Shown here: positions 7,030-62,569 of the stretch, piece by piece | Numbering within the stretch: position 1 is the stretch's first letter | How the letters are laid out: every line of letters begins with the position of its first letter | Notes under the pieces: generated by a model | The model's input: the letters and a program-made list of their open reading frames with translations, nothing else | Databases searched by the model: none | What the model was told of the DNA's origin: nothing | Source: Candidatus Rokubacteria bacterium GWA2_70_23 | GTDB lineage: Bacteria; Methylomirabilota; Methylomirabilia; Rokubacteriales; CSP1-6 | DNA length: 64,000 nucleotides | Reading direction: 5' to 3' | NCBI GenBank assembly: GCA_001788395.1 | Contig: MGBT01000221.1 | Coordinates: forward strand, 16,896 to 80,895 | Translations under genes and position numbers: made by a program

Positions 7030-7470
7030 GTGTTTCGGGGGCATTTCAAGCACACGGTCGATCCGAAGGGGCGGCTCAGCATCCCGGCGAAGTTCCGGGA
7101 AGCCCTGGCGGACGGCCGCGGCGACAAGGTCGTCATTGTGCCCTGCGGCGATGCGCTCGAAGTGCATCCGCTCCAGCTCTGGCACGCGCTCGAGGAGCGA
7201 GTGAATGCGCTGCCGAGATTCGATCCCGATCGGCGCCGAGTCCAGTACGCGTACATCTCGCTCGCCCAGGACGTCACGCTCGATCCGCAGGGACGCATCC
7301 AGATCCCTGCCGACTACCGCGAGCGCGTGGGGCTCGTGAAGGACGTGCTCATCATCGGCCTGACGGACAAGTTCGAGGTGTGGGATGCGGAGCGGTGGGC
7401 GCACTTCCAGCGCGATCACGATGGCCCGCTCGACGATCTGTTCGAAAGGCTGGCGGGCAAGGGAGTCTGA
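7030..7470 (+). CDS. mraZ: Transcriptional regulator MraZ
   Basis: 146 aa; GTG start; FRGHFKHTVDPKGRLSIPAKFRE matches MraZ N-terminus; first gene of dcw cluster. Confidence 0.9.
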   Translation: MFRGHFKHTVDPKGRLSIPAKFREALADGRGDKVVIVPCGDALEVHPLQLWHALEERVNALPRFDPDRRRVQYAYISLAQDVTLDPQGRIQIPADYRERVGLVKDVLIIGLTDKFEVWDAERWAHFQRDHDGPLDDLFERLAGKGV

Positions 7471-7476
7471 GGCGGC

Positions 7477-8382
7477 ATGCAGCGGGAGGGGATGGCGCAC
7501 CTCCCGGTGCTGGTGGACGAGGTGACGTTCCTCTTGCGCCCCCGTCGCGGGGGCTGGGTCGTGGACGGGACGGTCGGCATGGGTGGACACGCTGAGCGAC
7601 TGCTGGAGCGCGCGGGGCCCAGAGCGAGGCTCCTCGGGCTCGATCACGATCCCGAGGCGCTGGCGCGGGCCAGGCAGCGGCTGTCCCGCTTCGGCGATCG
7701 CGTGGTGCTCACGCAGGGAAGCTTCCGGCACCTCGCCACCCACGCGGGCGCCGCGGGCGTGACCGAAGCGGACGCCGTGCTCCTGGACCTGGGCCTCTCC
7801 TCCTACCAGCTCGATGAGTCGGCGCGCGGCTTTTCCTTCCAGGGCGACGAGCCGCTCGACATGCGCTTCGACCCCGCGCAGGGGCCCACCGCCGCCGAGC
7901 TCCTGAACTGCCTCCCGCAGGAGGAGCTGGCGCGCATCCTGTTCGAGTACGGCGACGAAACGCAAGCCCGCCGCATCGCCCGGCGCATCGTCGAGCAGCG
8001 GGCCCGGGCGCCCTTCGCGACGACGGCGGATCTGGTGGCCGTGGTGAAGCGGAGCGTGCCGCGCGCGGCCTGGTCGCGCCGCACCCACGTTGCCACGCGC
8101 ACCTTCCAGGCCCTCCGCATGGCCGTCAACGACGAGCCCGGGGCGCTCCGCGAGGCTCTCCCCCAGGCCGCCGCGCTGCTCGCCATTGGCGGCCGGCTCG
8201 GCGTCATCTCCTTCCACTCCGGCGAGGACCGCATCGTGAAGCGCATGTTCCGGAGCCTCGAGCCGACAGGCTTCGGCGAGCTGGAGCCGTCCCCGATCGA
8301 GCCCGACCCGGACGAGGTCAGACACAACCCGCGCGCGCGGAGCGCCAAGCTCCGCGTGCTCGCGCGCCTGGAGGCAGCATGA
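7477..8382 (+). CDS. rsmH: 16S rRNA (cytosine1402-N4)-methyltransferase RsmH (MraW)
   Basis: 301 aa; HLPVLVDEV and SAM-MTase motifs; position after mraZ. Confidence 0.9.
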   Translation: MQREGMAHLPVLVDEVTFLLRPRRGGWVVDGTVGMGGHAERLLERAGPRARLLGLDHDPEALARARQRLSRFGDRVVLTQGSFRHLATHAGAAGVTEADAVLLDLGLSSYQLDESARGFSFQGDEPLDMRFDPAQGPTAAELLNCLPQEELARILFEYGDETQARRIARRIVEQRARAPFATTADLVAVVKRSVPRAAWSRRTHVATRTFQALRMAVNDEPGALREALPQAAALLAIGGRLGVISFHSGEDRIVKRMFRSLEPTGFGELEPSPIEPDPDEVRHNPRARSAKLRVLARLEAA

Positions 8383-10886: not shown

Positions 10887-12388
10887 GGCGCCCCCCCGTG
10901 CCCACCTCCACGCTTCTCGACGCCCTGCCGGTGAAGACGGTGCACGGGGCCCTGCCGCCGACCGTCACCGGCGTCACCTACGACTCCCGGAAGGTCGTCC
11001 CGGGCGACCTCTTCGTGGCCGTGCCCGGGCTCAAGCAGGACGGGCGTCGCTATGTTCATGATGCCGTGGGGCGCGGCGCCTCTGCCGTGGTGCTCGAGGG
11101 GCCCGACCCGCTGCCCGCCGCCCTCGCCGCGCAGATCGTGGTCCCCAGCGCCCGCGAGGCCCTGGCGCGGCTCGCGGACGCCTATTACGGCCATCCGTCG
11201 GTTGCCCTCACGCTCATCGGCATCACCGGCACCAACGGCAAGACGACGACCACCTTCTTGGTGGACGCGCTCCTCCGTGCCGCGGGGCACCGGACCGGGC
11301 TCATCGGCACCATCGAGTACCGGATCGGCGACGAGGCGATGGCGGCGGGGCAGACCACTCCCGAGGCCGTGGAGCTGCAGGCTCTCCTCGCCCGCATGCG
11401 GGACGAGGACGTGACGGGGGTGGCCATGGAAGTCTCCTCCCATGCGCTGGCGCTGGCGCGGGTCGACGGGACGGAGATCGACGTGGCGGTGTTCACCAAC
11501 CTGACCCAGGATCACCTGGACTTCCACGGCACGCTCACGGAGTACCGCCGCGCCAAGAGGCGGCTGTTCGAGCTCCTGGCCTCGGGCGCCAAGCCTCGCC
11601 GCTCGGCCGTGATCAATGCCGACGATCCGGCGGGCCCGTCCATGGTGGCGGGGCTCGATCTGCCGATCCTGACCTTCGGCATGGGCCCGACGGCGGTGAT
11701 CCGTCCGCGGCAGGCGACGTCCGGGGCGGAGGGGATCAGGATGGAGGTGGAGACGCCAGCCGGCCCCGTGACAATCGCCTCGCCGCTTTCCGGCGAGCAC
11801 AACGCGATGAACCTCCTGGGCGCCGTCGGCGTTGCTCTCGCCCTCGGCATCGCGCCGGAGCTGGCGGCGCGGGCGCTGTCGGGTGTGGCCACCGTGCCGG
11901 GGCGCTTCGAGCGGGTGGAGGCGGGGCAGTCCTTCCTGGTGGTCGTGGACTACGCCCATACCCCGGATGCGCTGGAGCGGGTCCTCACCACGGCCCGCAA
12001 GCTGTTGCCCGGCGGGGGGCGGCTGGGGGTGGTCTTCGGGTGCGGCGGCGACCGGGACCGCGGCAAGCGCCCCATCATGGGCGGCATCGCCGCGCGGCTC
12101 TGCGACGGCGTGTGGGTCACCTCGGATAACCCGCGGAGCGAGGCGCCGGAGGCCATCATCGCCGAGATCGTGACGGGCATCCCCGCCGCCGGCCCGGGCG
12201 CCGCGCGGCATGTTACGATTCCGGACAGGAAGGCCGCCATCCGCGATGCGCTCGGGTGGGCCCGGGCCGGCGACGGGGTCGTGATCGCCGGCAAGGGCCA
12301 CGAGACCTACCAGGTCGTTGGCTCCCAGGTGCTTCCCTTCGACGATCGGGCCGTGGCCCGGGCGATCCTCGCGGAGCGGACATCATAA
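10883..12388 (+). CDS. murE: UDP-MurNAc-L-Ala-D-Glu:meso-DAP ligase MurE
   Basis: ATG at 10883 overlaps ftsI stop (ATGA); GITGTNGKTTT P-loop; the track ORF 10487 is an upstream in-frame extension. Confidence 0.9.
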   Translation: MRRPPVPTSTLLDALPVKTVHGALPPTVTGVTYDSRKVVPGDLFVAVPGLKQDGRRYVHDAVGRGASAVVLEGPDPLPAALAAQIVVPSAREALARLADAYYGHPSVALTLIGITGTNGKTTTTFLVDALLRAAGHRTGLIGTIEYRIGDEAMAAGQTTPEAVELQALLARMRDEDVTGVAMEVSSHALALARVDGTEIDVAVFTNLTQDHLDFHGTLTEYRRAKRRLFELLASGAKPRRSAVINADDPAGPSMVAGLDLPILTFGMGPTAVIRPRQATSGAEGIRMEVETPAGPVTIASPLSGEHNAMNLLGAVGVALALGIAPELAARALSGVATVPGRFERVEAGQSFLVVVDYAHTPDALERVLTTARKLLPGGGRLGVVFGCGGDRDRGKRPIMGGIAARLCDGVWVTSDNPRSEAPEAIIAEIVTGIPAAGPGAARHVTIPDRKAAIRDALGWARAGDGVVIAGKGHETYQVVGSQVLPFDDRAVARAILAERTS

Positions 12389-18862: not shown

Positions 18863-19744
18863 ATGCTTGGAGAGATCCGCGGCGAGGTGCGGTTCAAGGA
18901 GCCTCTCAGCTTCCACACGTCCTTGCGCATCGGAGGGCCCGCCGACTTCTTCATCGTCCCCCAGGACGTGGAGGACATCCGCCTGGCGCTGGCCTTCGCG
19001 GACAAGGAAGGGCTTCCCGTGGAGGTGATCGGCGGCGGGAACAACCTGCTGGTCCGTGACCGCGGGATCCGCGGCGTGGTCCTGCGGCTCGAAGGCTGCC
19101 TCGGACGCGCCGAGTTCAACGGCGAGGAAGCCGTGGCCGGCGCCGGCGTGAGCCTCTCCGCACTCATCCGCGAGGCGGCAGCGCTCAACCTGGGCGGCGT
19201 CGAGTGCCTCGTGGGCATCCCCGCCACCATCGGCGGCGCCGTCGCCATGAACGCGGGCACTCCGGATGGGTGGATCGGCGATTTCGTCTCCGCCGTGTAC
19301 TTCCTCCACCCGGACGGGACGCTCGGCGAGTTCAAGCCGGGCCCGGGGACCTTCGGCTACCGCCTGTTCGCCGCGCCGCCCGGCGCCGTCCTCATCGGCG
19401 CCCGCCTGAGGCTCCACCGGCGGCCGCAGGCGGAGATCCAGAAGGACATCAAGCAGCGGCTCAAGCAGAAGAAGGCCACGCAGCCGCTGGCGCTGGCCTC
19501 GGCCGGCTGCGTGTGGAAGAACCCGCCGGGCGATGCGGCCGGGCGCCTCGTGGAGAAGGTGGGGCTCAAGGGCAAGCGGCTCAACGGCGCCGAGATCTCG
19601 GCCAAGCACGCCAACTTCATCGTGAACCGGGGCGGCGCCATGGCCGCCGACATCCTGGCGCTGATGGACATGACGCGCGAGCGGGTGCAGCACCAGTTCG
19701 GCATCACGCTCGAGCCGGAGATCCGCATCGCGGGAGAGGGATGA
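18863..19744 (+). CDS. murB: UDP-N-acetylenolpyruvoylglucosamine reductase MurB
   Basis: 293 aa; FAD-binding PCMH-type N-terminus (RIGGPADFF). Confidence 0.9.
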   Translation: MLGEIRGEVRFKEPLSFHTSLRIGGPADFFIVPQDVEDIRLALAFADKEGLPVEVIGGGNNLLVRDRGIRGVVLRLEGCLGRAEFNGEEAVAGAGVSLSALIREAAALNLGGVECLVGIPATIGGAVAMNAGTPDGWIGDFVSAVYFLHPDGTLGEFKPGPGTFGYRLFAAPPGAVLIGARLRLHRRPQAEIQKDIKQRLKQKKATQPLALASAGCVWKNPPGDAAGRLVEKVGLKGKRLNGAEISAKHANFIVNRGGAMAADILALMDMTRERVQHQFGITLEPEIRIAGEG

Positions 19745-19786
19745 GGGGAGAGGGATGAGGGAGGCCAGACCGCAGGTGGGCGCCTG

Positions 19787-55236: not shown

Positions 55237-57033
55237 ATGGCTGAGCAGGAAGAAGACCGACATCTGAAGCTCGCCGGGGACCTCGACTGCATCCCGGAGC
55301 CGCTGCCGACCCTGCGCCACTCCACCTCGCATGTGATGGCCCAGGCGGTGAAGCAGCTCTTTCCCGAGGTGCGCGTCGCCATCGGCCCTGCCATCGAGGA
55401 CGGCTTCTACTACGACTTCCGCAGGGCCACGCCCTTCACCCCCGAGGACCTCGCGCGCGTCGAGGCGCGGATGCGGGAGCTCGTCAAGGCGGACCTGCCC
55501 TTCGTCAGGGAGGAGTGGGCGCGCGCGGAGGCCATCCGCCACTTCAAGGAGCAGGACGAGCCGTTCAAGGTGGAGATCCTCGAGGGACTCGACGTGCCTG
55601 CGGTGTCCGTGTACCGCCAGGGCGACTTCCTCGACCTCTGCCGCGGGCCCCACGTGCGCTCCACCCGGGGCATCAAGGCCTTCAAGCTCCTCTCCTCCTC
55701 GGGCGCCTACTGGCGCGGCGACGAGCGGAACCCGATGCTCCAGCGGATCTACGGGACCGCCTGGCTCACGCAGGAGGATCTGGACACGTACCTGTGGCGC
55801 CTCGAGGAGGCGAAGAAGCGCGACCACCGCAAGCTCGGGCGGGAGCTCGACCTCTTCGACTTCCACGACGTCGCCCCCGGGGCGCCCTTCTGGCTGCCCA
55901 ACGGGATGATCCTCGTCCGCGAGCTGGAGAAGTTCGCGCGCGAGCACCTCGATGCCCGGGGCTACCAGGAGATCTCCACGCCGCTGCTCATCCACAAGCG
56001 GCTCTGGGAGGAGTCGGGGCACTGGGAGCACTACAGCGAGCACATGTTCAAGGTGGAGGTGGAGGAGGAGATCTTCACGCTGAAGCCGATGAACTGTCCG
56101 CCGTCGACCTTCGTCTACCGGCGGGCGCTGCGCTCCTACCGGGATCTGCCGCTGCGCTTCTCCGAGATGGGGCGCTGCCACCGCAACGAGCGCTCGGGCA
56201 CGCTGACCGGTCTCGTCCGCGTCCGCCAGTTCACGCAGGACGATGCCCACATCTACTGCCGGCCGGATCAGCTCCAGGCCGAGATCGTCGGGATCCTCGA
56301 TCTGGTCCGGGAGTGGTACAAGACCTTCAACCTCCAGCCGACCTTCAAGCTCTCCACACGGCCCGAGAAGAAGCTCGGGGCCGAGGCGCAGTGGGACGCG
56401 GCCGAGCACGCGCTCGCCGAGGCGCTCAAGGTCACTGGGCTCGCCTACGACCTGAACCCGGGCGACGGCGCCTTCTACGGGCCCAAGATCGACATCTACG
56501 TCGAGGACGTCCTGGGGCGGAGCTGGCAGATCGCCACGGTCCAGGTGGACCTCGTCATGCTGCCCGAGCGCTTCAAGCTCGAGTACATCGACCGTGACGG
56601 CCAGCCGAAGCGGCCGGTGGCCATCCACCGGGCGATCTTCGGGTCCTACGAGCGGTTCATCGGCATCCTGACGGAGCACTTCGCGGGGGCGTTCCCCACG
56701 TGGCTCGCGCCCGTCCAGGCCCGCGTCCTGCCCGTGAGCGAGAAGCACCTCGAGTACGCACGCGTCGTCTTCGCCCGACTGCGAGAAGCGCGGATCCGGG
56801 CGGAGCTGGACGACCGGAACGAGAAGCTGGGGTACCGGATCCGCGAGGCCCAGGTGCGAAAGGTCCCCTACATGCTCGTCGTGGGGGAGCGCGAAGCGCA
56901 GAACGGCACGGCGAGCGTGCGCCGGCGCACCGGCGAGGACGCCGGGGCCATTCCCGTGGAGCGCATCGTGTCGGACCTCGCGGCCGAGATCGGCAGTCGT
57001 TCCGCCACCCTCACCGTGGGGCGATCGGCCTGA
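55237..57033 (+). CDS. thrS: Threonyl-tRNA synthetase, lacking the N-terminal TGS domain
   Basis: RHSTSHVMAQAV (editing-domain zinc site) begins about residue 27; class II core and anticodon-binding domain present; RBS AAAGGA before ATG 55237. Confidence 0.9.
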   Translation: MAEQEEDRHLKLAGDLDCIPEPLPTLRHSTSHVMAQAVKQLFPEVRVAIGPAIEDGFYYDFRRATPFTPEDLARVEARMRELVKADLPFVREEWARAEAIRHFKEQDEPFKVEILEGLDVPAVSVYRQGDFLDLCRGPHVRSTRGIKAFKLLSSSGAYWRGDERNPMLQRIYGTAWLTQEDLDTYLWRLEEAKKRDHRKLGRELDLFDFHDVAPGAPFWLPNGMILVRELEKFAREHLDARGYQEISTPLLIHKRLWEESGHWEHYSEHMFKVEVEEEIFTLKPMNCPPSTFVYRRALRSYRDLPLRFSEMGRCHRNERSGTLTGLVRVRQFTQDDAHIYCRPDQLQAEIVGILDLVREWYKTFNLQPTFKLSTRPEKKLGAEAQWDAAEHALAEALKVTGLAYDLNPGDGAFYGPKIDIYVEDVLGRSWQIATVQVDLVMLPERFKLEYIDRDGQPKRPVAIHRAIFGSYERFIGILTEHFAGAFPTWLAPVQARVLPVSEKHLEYARVVFARLREARIRAELDDRNEKLGYRIREAQVRKVPYMLVVGEREAQNGTASVRRRTGEDAGAIPVERIVSDLAAEIGSRSATLTVGRSA

Positions 57034-57077
57034 GCCCCGCACAGTAAGGAGTCACGGCGATACAGCCCAAGGACATT

Positions 57078-57575
57078 CGGGTCAACGAAGGCATTCGCGT
57101 CCGGGAAGTGCGGGTGGTGAGCGCCGAGGGCGAGCAGCTGGGGATCCTCCCCATCGCCCAGGCGCTGGATCTGGCGAAGCAGCGCGACATGGACCTCGTC
57201 GAAGTGGCCGCCGAGGCGGCCCCGCCGGTGTGCCGGATCATGGACTTCGGCAAGTACAAGTACACGCAGGCCCGCCGGCAGAAGGAAGCGCGGAAGAAGC
57301 AGACCACCATCGTGGTCAAGGAAGTCAAGCTGGGGCCGAAGACGGACACGCACGACTTCGACTTCAAGGCCAAGCACGTGCGGCGCTTCCTCGGGGAAGG
57401 CAACAAGGCGAAGGTGACGGTGCGCTTCAAGGGACGCGAGATGGCGCACACCGAGCTGGGCTGGAAGATGCTGAACAAGATGACCGAGATCATGAGCGAC
57501 ATGGCGGTGGTGGAGAGCCACCCGCGAATGGAGGGGCGCATGCTGAGCATGATCCTCTCCCCGAAAGCACACTGA
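57078..57575 (+). CDS. infC: Translation initiation factor IF-3 with non-canonical AUA start
   Basis: Frame opens after TAA 57063-65; RBS AAGGAG at 57064-69; no ATG/GTG/TTG before the conserved ...[16 protein letters not shown]...; ATA at 57078 is the only plausible start (IF-3 genes classically use AUU/AUA/AUC). Confidence 0.7.
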
Positions 57576-57581
57576 GAGCCC

Positions 57582-57682
57582 CCTCACCCTGCCCTCTCCC
57601 CCGGGGGGAGAGGGGGACACGGAGGGAAGGCTCGCCACCCTACCCTCTCCCAGCGGGGAGAGGGGGGACACGGAGAGAAGGC
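57582..57682. repeat. Two tandem copies of about 50-bp REP-like palindromic element CCCT(G/A)CCCTCTCCC..GGGGAGAGGGGGACACGGAG(G/A)GAAGGCTC(G/A)CC between infC and rpmI
   Basis: Direct repeat read directly; each unit contains 10-bp inverted repeat CCCTCTCCCC/GGGGAGAGGG; second copy supplies the rpmI RBS. Confidence 0.6.
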
Positions 57683-57687
57683 TCACC

Positions 57688-57885
57688 ATGCCGAAGATGA
57701 AGACCAAGCGGGCCGCGGCCAAGCGGCTGAAGGTCACCGCGTCCGGCAAGCTCAAGCGGCACAGCGGGTGGAAGAGTCACCTCCTGGAGGCCAAGTCCCC
57801 CAAGCGCCGGCGGCGACTCCGCAAGGCCTCGCTCATCTCCGCGGCCGACCAGCCGCGGCTCAAGAAGCTCGTCCCATACCTGTAA
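57688..57885 (+). CDS. rpmI: 50S ribosomal protein L35
   Basis: [25 protein letters not shown]; 65 aa. Confidence 0.9.
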
Positions 57886-57905
57886 CGTAAGAGGAGAGGC
57901 GAACC

Positions 57906-58265
57906 ATGCCACGGGCCAAGGGCGGGGCCAAGACCCGCCAGCGCAGGAACAAGGTACTGAAGCGGGCGAAGGGCTACTTCGGCGGCCGGCGGAAGCTCTA
58001 CCGCACCGCGGCCGAGACGGTGCTCCGCGCGGGCGCCTTCGCCTACAGGGGGCGCAAGCAGAAGAAGCGGCGGGCGCGCTCGCTGTGGATCATCCGCGTC
58101 AATGCGGCGTGCCGGCAGCTGGGCCTCTCCTACTCCGCCTTCATGTCGGGGCTGAAGAAGGCGGGCATCGGGCTCGACCGGAAGATCCTCGCGGAGCTGG
58201 CCGTTCAGGACCCGACCGCCTTCGCGAAGCTGGCGGAGACGGCGCGAGCGGCGAGCCGCGCCTGA
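57906..58265 (+). CDS. rplT: 50S ribosomal protein L20
   Basis: [26 protein letters not shown]; 119 aa. Confidence 0.9.
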
Positions 58266-58267
58266 GC

Positions 58268-59359
58268 GTGGCGCCGGACCCGCGGGTCCAGCAGATCCGC
58301 GATCGGGCCCTGGCGGACATCGCCGCCGCCCGGTCCACGGCTGACCTCGAGCAGATCCGCATCCGGGTGCTCGGCCGCTCCGGGGAGCTCACCGCCCGGC
58401 TCCGCTCCCTGGGGGCCATTCCGGCGGCGGAGCGCCCGCAGGTCGGGCAGGCGGCCAACCGCGCCAAGGCCGAGCTCGAGGAGCAGATCCAGGCCCGCCT
58501 CCAGGCGCTCCGCGTCGAGGAGCGCAGCCGGCAGCGGGAGGCGGGGCGGGTGGACCTCACCCTCCCCGGGCGCGTCACGCCCGCGGGGGCCGTCCACCCG
58601 ATCACCCGCGTGCAGGACGAGATTATCGCCATCTTCGAGGGGCTTGGTTTCTCCGTCGCCGAGGGGCCCGAGGTGGAGTCGGACTACTACAACTTCGCCG
58701 CCCTCAACTTCCCCGACGATCACCCTGCGCGGGACATGCAGGACACCTTCCACCTCTCGCCGGACACGCTCCTGCGCACCCACACCTCCCCGGTCCAGAT
58801 CCGCACCATGAAGGCGCAGCCGCCGCCGGTCCGCGTGATCTGCCCCGGCAAGGTGTACCGGCGCGACGCCGACATCACCCACTCGCCCATGTTCCACCAG
58901 GTCGAGGGGCTCGCCATCGACCGGAACATCTCCATGGGCGATCTCCGCGGCACCCTCGACCTGTTCGCGCGGGAGATGTTCGGCAGCCGCTCGCGCATCC
59001 GCTTCCGTCCCTCGTTCTTCCCGTTCACGGAGCCCTCCGCCGAGGTGGACGTCCTCTGCTTCCTCTGCGGGGGCGGCGGCTGCCGCGTGTGCAAGCAGGA
59101 CGGGTGGCTCGAGATCCTGGGCTCCGGGATGGTCCATCCCGACGTGCTGCGCAACGTGGGGTATGACCCCGAAGAGGTCATGGGCTGGGCCTTCGGCATG
59201 GGCGTCGAGCGCGTCGCCATGCTCAAGTACGGCATCGACGACATCCGGCTCTTCTTCGAGAACGACCTGCGCTTCCTGGGCCAGTTCGCCCCCCTCACCC
59301 TTCCCCCTCACCCTTCCCTCTCCCCCGCGGGGAGAGGGACACGGATGAGGCGCCGGTGA
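58268..59359 (+). CDS. pheS: Phenylalanyl-tRNA synthetase alpha subunit, with about 23-codon C-terminal extension encoded by a REP-like element
   Basis: GTG 58268 in frame of track ORF 58085; class II motifs; canonical end ...NDLRFLGQF followed by APLTLPPHPSLSPAGRGTRMRRR read through repeat copy. Confidence 0.85.
   Translation: MAPDPRVQQIRDRALADIAAARSTADLEQIRIRVLGRSGELTARLRSLGAIPAAERPQVGQAANRAKAELEEQIQARLQALRVEERSRQREAGRVDLTLPGRVTPAGAVHPITRVQDEIIAIFEGLGFSVAEGPEVESDYYNFAALNFPDDHPARDMQDTFHLSPDTLLRTHTSPVQIRTMKAQPPPVRVICPGKVYRRDADITHSPMFHQVEGLAIDRNISMGDLRGTLDLFAREMFGSRSRIRFRPSFFPFTEPSAEVDVLCFLCGGGGCRVCKQDGWLEILGSGMVHPDVLRNVGYDPEEVMGWAFGMGVERVAMLKYGIDDIRLFFENDLRFLGQFAPLTLPPHPSLSPAGRGTRMRRR
59296..59346. 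repeat. Third copy of the CCCTCTCCC..GGGGAGAGGGACACGGA element, inside the 3' end of pheS / 5' of pheT
   Basis: ccttccctctcccccgcggggagagggacacggatgagg aligns with copies at 57582-57682. Confidence 0.5.
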
Positions 59360-61788
59360 AGATATCCTACCGGTGGCTCAAGGAGTTCGTCGAGACCGAC
59401 CTCGGTCCCGCCGAGATCAAGGAGCGGCTGGTCCACGCCGGGATCGAGGTCGCGTCGGCGAGCCCGGTGGTCGAAGGGCTGTCGGGCGTGGTGGTGGGCG
59501 AGATCGAGGCCATCGAGACGGATCTCGGTCCGACGCCGGCCGGCCACCACAATCGCCTCTGCCGCGTCGCCCTGCCCGACCGGAAGTTCTCCGTGATCTG
59601 CGGCGCGCCCAATGCCGCGCCCGGGCTGCGGACCGCCTTCGCGCCCCCCGGGGCGACGCTGCCCGGGGGGCGCGCGATCACGGCGACCAGGATCCGCGGC
59701 GTGGTCTCCGAGGGGATGCTCTGCTCGGAGAAGGAGCTCGGGATCGGCGAGGACGCGAGCGGCATCCTCGAGCTGCCCGCCGACGCCCCCGTGGGAGCGG
59801 ATCTGTCGACCTATCTCGGGCTCGACGACACGATCCTCGAGATCGAGATCACGCCGAACCGACCGGATGCGCTCTCCGTGGTGGGCGTGGCGCGCGAGCT
59901 GTCCGCGCTGACGGGCGCCCCGTTCCGCTTCCCGCAGGCGGCCGTGCGGGACGGGGAGCAGGCGGCGGCGGCGCTGGCCGCAGTCGAGATCACCGACCCG
60001 GACCTCTGCCCGCGCTACGCCGCCCGCGTCATCACGGGGCTCAGCGTGCGCCCCTCGCCGCCATGGCTCGCCCAGCGGCTGCGGGCCGTCGGGCTGCGCC
60101 CCATCAACAACCTGGTGGACGTGACGAACTACGTCCTGTGGGAGCTCGGGCACCCGCTGCACGCCTTCGATCACGCGACACTCCCCGGCGGACGCATCGT
60201 CGTGCGGCGCGCGCGGGCGGGCGAGCGGATGACCACGCTCGACGGGCGTGAGCGCGCGCTCGAGCCCGACATGCTGATGATCTGCGACGCCGAGCGCGCC
60301 GTCGCGGTGGGCGGCGTCATGGGCGGCGCCGCCACCGAGGTGACGCCGCGGACCACCACGGTGCTCCTCGAGGCGGCCTGCTTCACCCCGGGCTCGATCC
60401 GGCGAACGTCCCGGGCGCTCGGGCTCAGCACCGACGCCTCCTACCGCTTCGAGCGGGGAGCCGACATCGAGGGCCTGCGGGCGGCGCTGGACCGAGCGGC
60501 CCAGCTCATGGCCGATCTCGGCGGCGGCACCGTGGCGCGCGGAGTCGTGGACGTGTACCCGGCGCCGCGACCCCACTCCCGCATCGCGCTCCGGCTCGAG
60601 CGCGTCGAGCGGCTCATCGGTGCCTGTCCGCCGCGCCCCGAGGCGGTGCGCATCCTCCAGGCCCTGGGCTTCGCCGTGGACGATTCGGCGCCCGCGCTCC
60701 AGGTCGTGGTGCCGAGCTTCCGGCGCGACATCGCCCAGGAGGCCGACCTCGTCGAGGAGATCATCCGTGTCTGGGGCTACGAGCGGATTCCCTTGACGCT
60801 GGGCGCCGGGGCCCAGGCCCTCGTCAAGCGGCCGCCGCAACTCGGGCTGGCGCGCGAGATGAGCCGCACGCTCAACGCTGCCGGGCTCTCCGAGGTCATC
60901 ACCTACGCCTTCGTGGATCCCGACCGGCTGAAGGCGATGGGCTGGGCGGGGGAGCAGGGGCTCATCGCGCTCCAGAACCCGATCTCGCGCGAGCGATCGG
61001 TGCTGCGGCCGATGCTCGCGCCGGGATTGCTCGAGGTGCTGGCGTTGAATGCCAGCCGCCAGCTGCCCGACGCGCGCGTCTTCGAGGTGGGACACGTCTT
61101 CTCGCCGCAGGTCGAGTCGGACGGCGATCGGCCGGCCCACGAAGAGCTGTGGCTCGGCATCGCGCTGACCGGCCTCCGCCAGCCGCGCGCCTGGCACGCG
61201 GGGCGGGAGCGAGTGGACATCTACGATGTCAAGGGCGCGGCGACCCTGGTGCTCGCCGCGGCGGGGATCTCGGCCTTCGACGTCGTGGCCGAGCCCGCCG
61301 GCGGACTGCCGGGGTATCTGGCGCGCGCCTGCGCCGCGGCCCTCTCGGTGGGTGAGACCGGGGTGGGCTGGTTCGGCGAGGTCACTCATGAGACGCGGGA
61401 GGCCTTCGATCTGCCCGCCCCGGTCTTCCTCGCCGAGCTGTCGCTGACGGCGCTGTGCGCGCTGCCCGCCGTCACGCCCCGCTACCAGCCGCTGCCGCGC
61501 TTCCCCTCCGTCCAGCGCGACCTGGCCCTCGTGGTGTCGGCCGACGTGACGGCGGGGGAGATCGAGGCCGCGATCCGCGCCATGGATGTCCCGTGGCTCG
61601 CGCGGCTGCAGGTGTTCGACGTCTACGCAGGCGGTCAGGTGGGGAGCGGCCGTCGGAGCCTCGCCTGGAGCCTCACCTTCCAGGCGCCCGACCGCACGCT
61701 CACGGACGCCGAGGTCAACGACACTCACGCCAGGATCGTGAAGGAGCTCACCGAGCGTTTCCGGGGCGAGGTGAGAGGGACGACATGA
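59356..61788 (+). CDS. pheT: Phenylalanyl-tRNA synthetase beta subunit
   Basis: 810 aa; GTG start overlapping pheS stop; MKISYRWLKEFVETDL typical PheT N-terminus. Confidence 0.9.
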   Translation: MKISYRWLKEFVETDLGPAEIKERLVHAGIEVASASPVVEGLSGVVVGEIEAIETDLGPTPAGHHNRLCRVALPDRKFSVICGAPNAAPGLRTAFAPPGATLPGGRAITATRIRGVVSEGMLCSEKELGIGEDASGILELPADAPVGADLSTYLGLDDTILEIEITPNRPDALSVVGVARELSALTGAPFRFPQAAVRDGEQAAAALAAVEITDPDLCPRYAARVITGLSVRPSPPWLAQRLRAVGLRPINNLVDVTNYVLWELGHPLHAFDHATLPGGRIVVRRARAGERMTTLDGRERALEPDMLMICDAERAVAVGGVMGGAATEVTPRTTTVLLEAACFTPGSIRRTSRALGLSTDASYRFERGADIEGLRAALDRAAQLMADLGGGTVARGVVDVYPAPRPHSRIALRLERVERLIGACPPRPEAVRILQALGFAVDDSAPALQVVVPSFRRDIAQEADLVEEIIRVWGYERIPLTLGAGAQALVKRPPQLGLAREMSRTLNAAGLSEVITYAFVDPDRLKAMGWAGEQGLIALQNPISRERSVLRPMLAPGLLEVLALNASRQLPDARVFEVGHVFSPQVESDGDRPAHEELWLGIALTGLRQPRAWHAGRERVDIYDVKGAATLVLAAAGISAFDVVAEPAGGLPGYLARACAAALSVGETGVGWFGEVTHETREAFDLPAPVFLAELSLTALCALPAVTPRYQPLPRFPSVQRDLALVVSADVTAGEIEAAIRAMDVPWLARLQVFDVYAGGQVGSGRRSLAWSLTFQAPDRTLTDAEVNDTHARIVKELTERFRGEVRGTT

Positions 61789-62006: not shown

Positions 62007-62027
62007 CTCGACCGGGGAGGGGGGCCC

Positions 62028-62384: not shown

Positions 62385-62565
62385 AGTTGCCCTGCGCTGT
62401 GCGTGATGTCGGGGGGAAGTTTCAACCTCGTTTCTACGCAGGACGCCGTACAGAGGGTGGTGCGCATGCCCCTTCGACAAGGGGAAGCCTGAAGCCCTCC
62501 TTTTGGCGCCCACCTGGTCATACCAGGTTCGAAACACCGTCGGCACACGGCAGAGGCGGGGCTGA
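62385..62565 (+). ncRNA. Candidate structured ncRNA, possibly 6S RNA (ssrS) by zapA-downstream synteny
   Basis: About 180-nt non-coding stretch with several local hairpins (CCCCTT-cgac-AAGGGG; CCTGGT-cat-ACCAGG) and imperfect 5'/3' complementarity (GCCCTGCGCTGTGCG vs GCACACGGCAGAGGCGGGGC); TTGACT at 62352-62357 upstream; in E. coli ssrS follows zapA. Confidence 0.3.
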
Positions 62566-62569
62566 TCTG

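Follow-up and report, generated by a model that had tools for sequence, protein, structure and literature searches.

Repetitive extragenic palindromic (REP) sequences and their REPIN arrangements are short, GC-rich extragenic palindromes, often located within operons, where they form mRNA hairpins. They carry a GTAG head, occur as inverted pairs and are mobilized by RAYT transposases. Rickettsia palindromic elements (RPE), of approximately 100 to 150 bp and specific to Rickettsia, are inserted internally in proteins, while mycobacterial interspersed repetitive units (MIRU) occupy operon junctions as tandem 40- to 100-bp units with no hairpin or triplex architecture. In Escherichia coli, moreover, an L20 autoregulatory pseudoknot operator lies upstream of rpmI. 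Here, we describe a repeat of approximately 50 nt found in three copies, all on one strand, in the infC-rpmI-rplT-pheST operon of a 64,000-nt stretch (the window) of Candidatus Rokubacteria bacterium GWA2_70_23. The closest described system is the G/C-rich intrastrand triplex motif (TM), whose form in E. coli, TMECO, is CCCTCTCCC-TGT-GGGAGAGGG-CCG-GGGTGAGGG (Holder et al. 2015, NAR, PMC4666352). That study counted 3,610 motif copies in 262 proteobacterial genomes and, citing earlier work by Bachellier and Maher, equated the motif with BoxC and with Maher's PIT elements. A single strand forms a triplex in vitro, with no triplex footprint in vivo; promoter or terminator activity is absent in E. 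coli, the motif loci are strongly linked with small deletions and mutations between strains, and all 23 copies in E. coli K-12 are intergenic (PMC4666352). Nothing beyond this paper turned up in the later literature on BoxC or triplex motifs.

The copies in the window are most likely near-neutral passengers of a BoxC/TM-type repeat, which destabilize the gene junctions they occupy and do not act as a dedicated regulator; we assign this reading a probability of about 0.78. Their family identity is clear, their presence and their reading frame are polymorphic, and relatives free of the repeat are compact at the same junctions. What the locus offers is a known kind of repeat in a new host, and it reveals no new regulatory mechanism.

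Family membership of the repeat

Two copies stand in tandem in the infC-rpmI spacer (57581-57687) and one at the pheS 3' end (59292-59355), as the original prediction had proposed (Table 1). Pattern, repeat and profile searches agree on this arrangement. Exact matches to CCCTCTCCCC-N(1-8)-GGGGAGAGGG are located at 57592-57614 and 59316-59338, with none expected from 100 shuffles, and the repeat search returned a 51-nt family with members at 57585-57635 and 57636-57686 (80% identical, head to tail) and at 59309-59359 (65%). An nhmmer profile of the three copies recovered all of them, with E values between 1e-13 and 6e-16. Except for a half-repeat at murB, neither the profile nor the half-motif scans detected a further copy in the 64 kb, and the copy number of this organism is a count within that length.

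On the + strand, the core comprises CCCTCACCC, a 2-nt linker, CCCTCTCCC, a 5-nt loop and GGGAGAGGG, and all three 9-nt blocks are kept in copies 1 and 3. Copy 1 reads CCCTCACCC-TG-CCCTCTCCC-CCGGG-GGGAGAGGG, or CCCTCTCCC-N5-GGGAGAGGG-CA-GGGTGAGGG on the - strand. Both members of the tandem pair are present, but the second is not a full core: its hairpin is CCCTCTCCC-AGCG-GGGAGAGGG (57643-57664), and its first block has degenerated to CGCCACCC instead of CCCTCACCC. As RNA, each hairpin is predicted to fold at approximately -20 kcal/mol, and outer pairs bring copies 1 and 3 to between -32 and -34 kcal/mol (-32 kcal/mol in copy 3, through CCUCA/UGAGG). The heptamer ACACGGA directly follows the hairpin in all three copies. 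None of the three is followed by a U tract, and a promoter and terminator scan of the region found no + strand site resembling either.

The + strand of the element is the reverse complement of TMECO, and its 9-mers equal those of Table 1 in the 2015 study (PMC4666352). The - strand pattern CCCTCNCCC-N3-6-GGGNGAGGG-N1-6-GGGNGAGGG, with no match expected by chance, matches copies 1 and 3 and fails in copy 2, where the third block (the first on the + strand) is degenerate. The second loop is 2 nt long (CA or AA), and the strict TMECO pattern, with a first loop of 3 to 6 nt and a second of exactly 3 nt, has no match in the window; the window copies do fall within the general ITxF definition of loops of 1 to 6 nt and a stem of 6 to 15 nt (PMC4666352). 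Judged by its sequence, the element is a member of the TM class (PIT; BoxC in E. coli), which has already been described as widespread. Shared with that class are the sequence and order of the three blocks CCCTCTCCC/GGGAGAGGG/GGGTGAGGG, a first loop of 3 to 6 nt, multiple copies in many taxa, conservation confined to the blocks, and small local deletions or duplications together with presence or absence between close strains. The window element differs in its shorter second loop (2 instead of 3 nt), in its host, which belongs to the Rokubacteria and not to the Proteobacteria, and in the additional ACACGGA tail of the local copies. Furthermore, copies 1 and 2 are intergenic, whereas copy 3 lies inside an open reading frame (ORF) and is read as coding, as does a copy in folD of a related contig, in contrast to the exclusively intergenic copies of E. 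coli K-12.

A scan of one genome per species with the pattern CACCCTNCCCTCTCCC-N3-7-GGGAGAGGG returned at least 120 stretches, with about 16 phyla among the matches listed. These matches include Planctomycetota, Chloroflexota, Nitrospirota, Nitrospinota, Omnitrophota, Elusimicrobiota, Acidobacteriota, Patescibacteria, Vampirovibrionia/Gastranaerophilales, Margulisbacteria, Sumerlaeota, Ignavibacteria, Myxococcota and Desulfobacterota, besides many Proteobacteria and several Rokubacteria and Methylomirabilota. In 126 copies among the listed matches, conservation extends from the CCCT preceding CACCCT to the last G of GGGAGAGGG and then ends, with unrelated flanks; GGGTGAGGG is also present on the right side in a subset. 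Close to the window's own lineage, relatives carry 4 to 14 hairpin cores per 7 to 8 kb. The 2015 description is extended by a motif that is nearly invariant across the approximately 16 phyla among the listed matches, candidate-phyla-radiation bacteria included, and that also occurs in predicted viral contigs. In the latter (IMG/VR, L221-L286; such handles denote compared stretches), a 28- to 32-nt motif was observed in 66 stretches, with three to four copies in less than 7 kb in L227 and L255, a count in which phage DNA and host DNA called as prophage are not distinguished. A scan of metagenomes for the ACACGGA tail yielded 77 stretches with diverse flanks. Some of these are orthologous loci at pheS and infC, and others represent an unrelated variant that holds a nested hairpin. 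In this variant, seen in unrelated metagenome contigs (L158, L161, L189, L190 and L191), the second loop holds a small hairpin, GGGAGAGGG-CGGACACGGAGCGAAGCGGAGTGCCG-GGTGAGGG.

The family had initially been called REP-like. It is indeed a dispersed palindromic family and, as with REP/REPIN, its GC-rich palindromes lie between operon genes and would form mRNA hairpins. It is not REP in the strict sense, since no copy has GTAG at either end and no inverted pairs occur: all copies lie on one strand, copies 1 and 2 in direct tandem, and the sequence family is another. No RAYT gene was noticed in the window, although no search aimed at one was made. With RPE it shares a palindromic repeat in frame in an essential gene, read as an extra peptide without destroying the protein, but the window element measures approximately 35 to 60 bp and sits at the extreme C terminus. 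MIRU resemble it in their intercistronic position, in being open to translation, and in stop/start overlaps with the flanking genes that keep coupling; their sequence is unrelated, and the hairpin and triplex architecture is foreign to them.

Empty and filled infC-rpmI spacers

At NCBI, L20 and PheS proteins identical to those of the window are recorded for Candidatus Rokubacteria bacterium GWA2_70_23 and for related MAGs. For this spacer, we compared contigs encoding an L20 protein identical to that of the window. In eight contigs, taken from assemblies of ENA, JGI and NCBI, the filled spacer is the same essentially to the base; filled alleles include those of L001 and L005 (92.5% and 97.3% identical to the window). 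An empty spacer of 9 nt, CACACTAGGAGGCTGAGATG, was found in L009, which is 99.7 to 99.9% identical to the window on both sides, and in L186 and L173 (approximately 97.7%). It reads CACAC TAG GAGGCTGAG ATG in L009 and L186, and L173 differs at three bases. The repeat-free relative L219 is likewise compact, with a 10-nt spacer, CACACTAGGAGCGGCGATATG. The result is a clean pair of empty and filled alleles within one population. Since the haplotypes also differ in the infC stop codon (TGA versus TAG) and in the bases preceding the ATG, the empty form is no simple excision product, and the distribution of the alleles probably reflects old variants reshuffled by recombination.

This comparison also bears on the proposal that the second copy supplies the rpmI Shine-Dalgarno sequence, which is not supported: an AGGAGG is already in place in the empty allele, 5 nt ahead of the ATG. 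The purine run preceding the ATG in the filled allele, AGAAGGCTCACC, belongs to the flank and not to the element because it aligns with AGGAGGCTGAG of the empty allele.

A second proposal was that the palindromes take the place of the E. coli L20 operator, binding L20 for the autoregulation of rpmI-rplT. They are in the right position, immediately upstream of rpmI, and the fold of the 151-nt spacer region is strong (-68 kcal/mol), but it is only marginally better than that of shuffled sequences (z = -2.0). An Rfam search over 56900-59600 gave no family at the gathering threshold and, at E <= 5, only sub-threshold hairpin look-alikes (e.g., miRNA precursors) and no L20 leader. Position upstream of rpmI is all that the insert shares with the E. 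coli pseudoknot and the Rfam L20_leader of Firmicutes, which it matches neither in sequence nor in structure. Moreover, the identical hairpin occurs in pheS, folD and unrelated contexts in approximately 16 phyla among the listed matches. The insert is not conserved even within a species-level population, as it is absent from L009, L173 and L186, which encode identical or near-identical L20 and are 97.7 to 99.9% identical around the site; in these contigs and in the distant L219 (118-aa L20), L35 follows IF3 after 9 to 10 nt. Because the insert is absent from near-identical genomes and no L20 leader was matched, an L20-like role is unsupported, and we consider it very improbable.

Collapsed or chimeric repeats in metagenome assemblies would be another source of such copies or polymorphisms. 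GC-rich palindromic repeats are hard on assemblers, and several PheS entries of the 90%-identity cluster are partial, presumably owing to contig ends. Nonetheless, the filled allele recurs base for base in at least eight independent assemblies (ENA, JGI and NCBI), and the empty allele is found in three, with a similar form in a distant relative. Of all the explanations weighed here, an assembly artefact appears the least credible.

Within the filled spacer, both 51-nt units consist of the hairpin followed on the right side by an identical 22 nt, GGACACGGAGRGAAGGCTCRCC. An independent insertion of copy 2 was considered and set aside, as the shared right flank would be better explained by tandem duplication. 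CACACTAGGAG occurs once only in the empty allele, whereas the filled allele has CACACTGAGAG to the left and GACACGGAGAG to the right of the insert, an arrangement that looks like a target duplication of approximately 10 bp. Across 110 copies, direct repeats of at least 7 nt within 24-nt flanks were found in 7.3%, versus 2.2% of shuffled pairings; inverted repeats were similarly in excess, and the repeats were not adjacent to the motif. This signal is too weak to claim target-site duplication as a general feature. Active insertion with a target duplication of this kind, in which the G-rich block would be repeatedly recruited as a stop-codon/Shine-Dalgarno module that keeps coupling in compact operons, is unlikely on balance. 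If it were true, the infC-rpmI haplotypes would show in nature the states before and after insertion of an element whose spread has lacked an explanation since the 1990s.

The pheS tail and the pheS-pheT junction

At the 3' end of pheS, the ORF and its translation bear out the predicted extension of about 23 non-conserved codons after RFLGQF, overlapping the pheT GTG. The protein ends in ...DLRFLGQF followed by APLTLPPHPSLSPAGRGTRMRRR*, with the stop TGA at 59357-59359, and the predicted tryptic peptide of the tail is FLGQFAPLTLPPHPSLSPAGR. In the compact junction of L219, pheS ends with CAG TTC GCC CCG TGA (QFAP*) and overlaps the pheT GTG (...CAGTTCGCCCCGTGA). The 63 nt that the window has in addition encode 21 of the 23 tail residues.

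Four tail states exist among genomes 92.5 to 99.9% identical to the window, and three tail frames among the near-identical ones. In L173 and L186, the hairpin lacks the 13-bp duplication, and a tail of 15 to 16 aa stops at the TGA of GGATGAGG (protein P0001). The window, L002, L004-L007 and L009 carry the duplication, which moves pheS into another frame and past the TGA at 59346-59348, and their 23-aa tail ends at the GTGA overlap. A 13-nt deletion in L003 (99.8% identical) destroys the left hairpin arm, leaving a PheS of 355 aa, and L001 has a tail of 24 aa and another palindrome, which is about as long and shares the right end GGTGAGGGGCGCCGATGA. Together with the empty and filled spacers at 99.7 to 99.9% flank identity and the 51-nt tandem duplication, the 13-bp duplication and the 13-nt deletion reproduce the local instability known for this class.

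We also surveyed the best 120 PheS clusters (77 to 95% identity), counting the tail after RFLxQF. Tails are between 1 and 66 aa long (median 6), and in 29 clusters the tail is only AS or AP. About 20 tails resemble translated hairpins (e.g., PLTLPSPxxGEG and SPSPLWGEGRGEG); three of them (L208-L210) were checked in DNA and confirmed, their long tails being built from one to five hairpins. This variation rules out that the tail is conserved PheS sequence, and the repeat-free proteins end in ...QFAP*. The sequences thus compared support a repeat-derived tail, which is apparently dispensable. For annotation, P/S/L/G/E/R-rich extended C termini in Rokubacteria and Methylomirabilota (...PLTLPSPxxGEG..., ...SPSPLWGEGRGEG...) are to be read as repeat read-through and not as new domains. 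As a separate observation, 6 of the 15 listed members of the 90%-identity cluster of the window PheS (39 members) are labelled partial, as would be expected if the repeat broke assemblies.

The idea that the repeat donates the ribosome-binding site of pheT is less clear-cut. An SD-like (Shine-Dalgarno-like) GAGG (59347-59350) sits 5 nt before the pheT GTG, inside the 63 extra nt, but L001 shares the right end without such a hairpin. The right tail of copy 3, ACACGGATGAGGCGCCG, may be a degenerate fourth block resembling GGGTGAGGG, of which the GAGG may then be a decayed part. L208 and L210 have an intact GGGTGAGGGG 2 to 3 nt upstream of the GTG, and compact relatives have the GTGA overlap alone. 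A repeat origin of this site is therefore ambiguous.

Table 1. Positions of the repeat copies, their flanking sites and the associated gene features in the window
Feature	Position	Strand	Basis and remarks
Copy 1, complete three-block motif	57581..57614	-	relaxed triplex-motif pattern; RNA hairpin -20 kcal/mol
Outer imperfect palindrome around copy 1, stem GAGCCCCCUC/GGAGGGAAGGCUC	57576..57631	+	fold approximately -34 kcal/mol
Tandem unit 1, 51 nt: hairpin and 22-nt right flank GGACACGGAGGGAAGGCTCGCC	57586..57636	+	repeat search and reading
Tandem unit 2, 51 nt, abutting the rpmI ATG (57688)	57637..57687	+	repeat search and nhmmer
Copy 3, complete three-block motif	59305..59338	-	relaxed pattern; + strand CCCTCACCC-TT-CCCTCTCCC-CCGCG-GGGAGAGGG
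CACACTGAGAG, including the infC stop TGA (57573-57575); left copy of a possible direct repeat of approximately 10 bp	57568..57578	+	reading, putative
Right copies of the possible direct repeat, GACACGGAGGG and GACACGGAGAG	57616-57626; 57667-57677	+	reading, putative
pheS, 363 aa including the 23-aa tail	58268..59359	+	ORF translation; exact protein OGK76121.1 at NCBI
63 nt extra relative to the compact junction TTCGCCCC|GTGAAGAT	59293..59355	+	comparison with L219
Tandem duplication of 13 bp, CCTCACCCTTCCC x2	59293..59318	+	repeat search; single-copy alleles in L173 and L186; 13-nt deletion in L003
Right tail ACACGGATGAGGCGCCG: alternative pheS stop TGA 59346-59348 (L173, L186, L003) and SD-like GAGG 59347-59350	59339..59355	+	reading
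GTGA, pheT start overlapping the pheS stop	59356..59359	+	ORFs; equal 4-nt overlap in L208-L210, L219 and L220
GGGAGAGGGATGAG x2 at the murB stop (TGA 19742-19744), G-rich half-motif	19732..19759	+	sequence search, fold

Spread of the repeat and its possible effects

Related contigs carry the repeat at further junctions. L002, which is 99.96% identical to the window, has an extra copy (11290-11345) approximately 6.5 kb past the window end, inside the 3' end of folD. It lies in the opposite orientation, as hairpin-CA-GGGTGAGGGG, and the TGA within GGGTGAGGG terminates folD; the folD tail of L001 is different and shorter. In the operon of L208-L210, one to five hairpins occur between infC and rpmI, one or two between rpmI and rplT, and one to five in the pheS tail, with more between zapB and zapA, and the third block is found in both orientations. 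L208 alone has 14 hairpin cores in 8.2 kb. Four of its cores lie in the zapB-zapA spacer (7400-7650), within approximately 250 nt; the corresponding spacer of the window (62007-62027) is 21 nt long and has none.

The near-neutrality of the copies, the order of events and the translation of the tail are what we infer from these comparisons. BoxC-type repeats would have colonized gene junctions of the thrS-infC-rpmI-rplT-pheS-pheT operon in a lineage of Rokubacteria (Methylomirabilota), first by an insertion into the infC-rpmI spacer of 9 to 10 nt. A tandem duplication of this insertion, with 22 nt of its right flank included, would then have given the two 51-nt units. A separate insertion probably hit the final codons of pheS; given the overlap of pheS and pheT (GTGA), no other site would be tolerated at this junction. 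As the repeat is almost free of stop codons, ribosomes would read through it, and PheS would gain a tail. Small slippage events between C-rich direct repeats, such as the 13-bp duplication of the window and the 13-nt deletion of L003, may reset the length and the frame of this tail. On the mRNA, each copy is predicted to form a G-C hairpin of 9 to 10 bp, at approximately -20 kcal/mol and without a U tract, and the downstream starts and SD-like purine runs, located 3' of the hairpins, would remain usable. Repeats may survive only where they are harmless, either in a spacer or among the final codons of a gene whose stop codon overlaps the start of its neighbor.

Several observations weigh against such a neutral history. 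All three window copies are within one operon, and the same junctions carry one to five hairpins in relatives that are only 75 to 80% identical, so selection or a hot spot is possible. The overlap of the pheS stop and the pheT start is kept in most repeat-bearing alleles. The filled spacers of L001 (2812-2924) and the window (57576-57687) differ by one C indel in approximately 115 nt, while the flanking 9 kb is only 92.5% identical, as would be expected if the segment had been exchanged recently or were constrained. Lastly, the ACACGGA tail of the local copies occurs in none of the 126 copies among the listed genome-scan matches.

A rival view is that the hairpins have been co-opted as intercistronic mRNA elements, akin to REP elements in E. 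coli operons or MIRU in mycobacterial operons. As processing sites or barriers to 3'-exonucleases, they would control the ratios of IF3, L35, L20, PheS and PheT, and the G-rich blocks would maintain coupling by supplying a stop codon and a Shine-Dalgarno sequence together (GGA-TGA-GG, GGG-TGA-GGG). In agreement with this view, L208-L210 have been colonized repeatedly at infC-rpmI, at rpmI-rplT, at zapB-zapA and in the pheS tail, and GGGTGAGGGG stands 2 to 3 nt ahead of the pheT start GTG in two of them, L208 and L210. Further points in its favor are the stable local structures (-32 to -34 kcal/mol) and the retention of the 4-nt stop/start overlap despite tails of 28 to 66 aa. The TGA of the G-rich block also serves as the stop of pheS in L173 and L186, of folD in L002, and of murB. 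On the contrary, the infC-rpmI insert is wholly absent from genomes 97.7 to 99.9% identical around the site, some relatives have no hairpins at any junction, and copy number, third-block orientation and position vary freely; nor does the motif have terminator or promoter activity in E. coli (PMC4666352). Since the same junctions recur in distant relatives and the 4-nt overlaps are retained, co-option stays alive as a minority explanation. In the preferred reading, in which the copies are passengers, the operon illustrates what an essential gene can tolerate: PheS accepts predicted repeat-encoded tails of up to 66 residues, and operon junctions are where repeats survive.

A 14-bp tandem repeat in the murB-ftsQ region, which the original prediction had linked to the family, is real and includes the murB stop (Table 1). 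As it lacks a complementary arm and is not predicted to fold, it is at most the remnant of a half-element. The junction is invariant in all seven contigs that encode an identical MurB, so there is no variation to exploit at this site.

Two observations concern neighboring genes. Between an in-frame stop TAA (57045-57047) and the conserved N terminus of infC (window 57045-57110), there is no ATG, GTG or TTG. The likely start is AUA (57060) or AUU (57075), after the Shine-Dalgarno sequence AAGGAG (57046-57051), and the NCBI gene calls of 171 aa in L008 and 166 aa in L005 fit these starts. A non-canonical IF3 start is known from E. coli. Directly 3' of zapA, a 6S RNA (Rfam RF00013, 82 bits) is located at 62386-62566 on the + strand, a zapA-ssrS neighborhood that is also found in E. 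coli.

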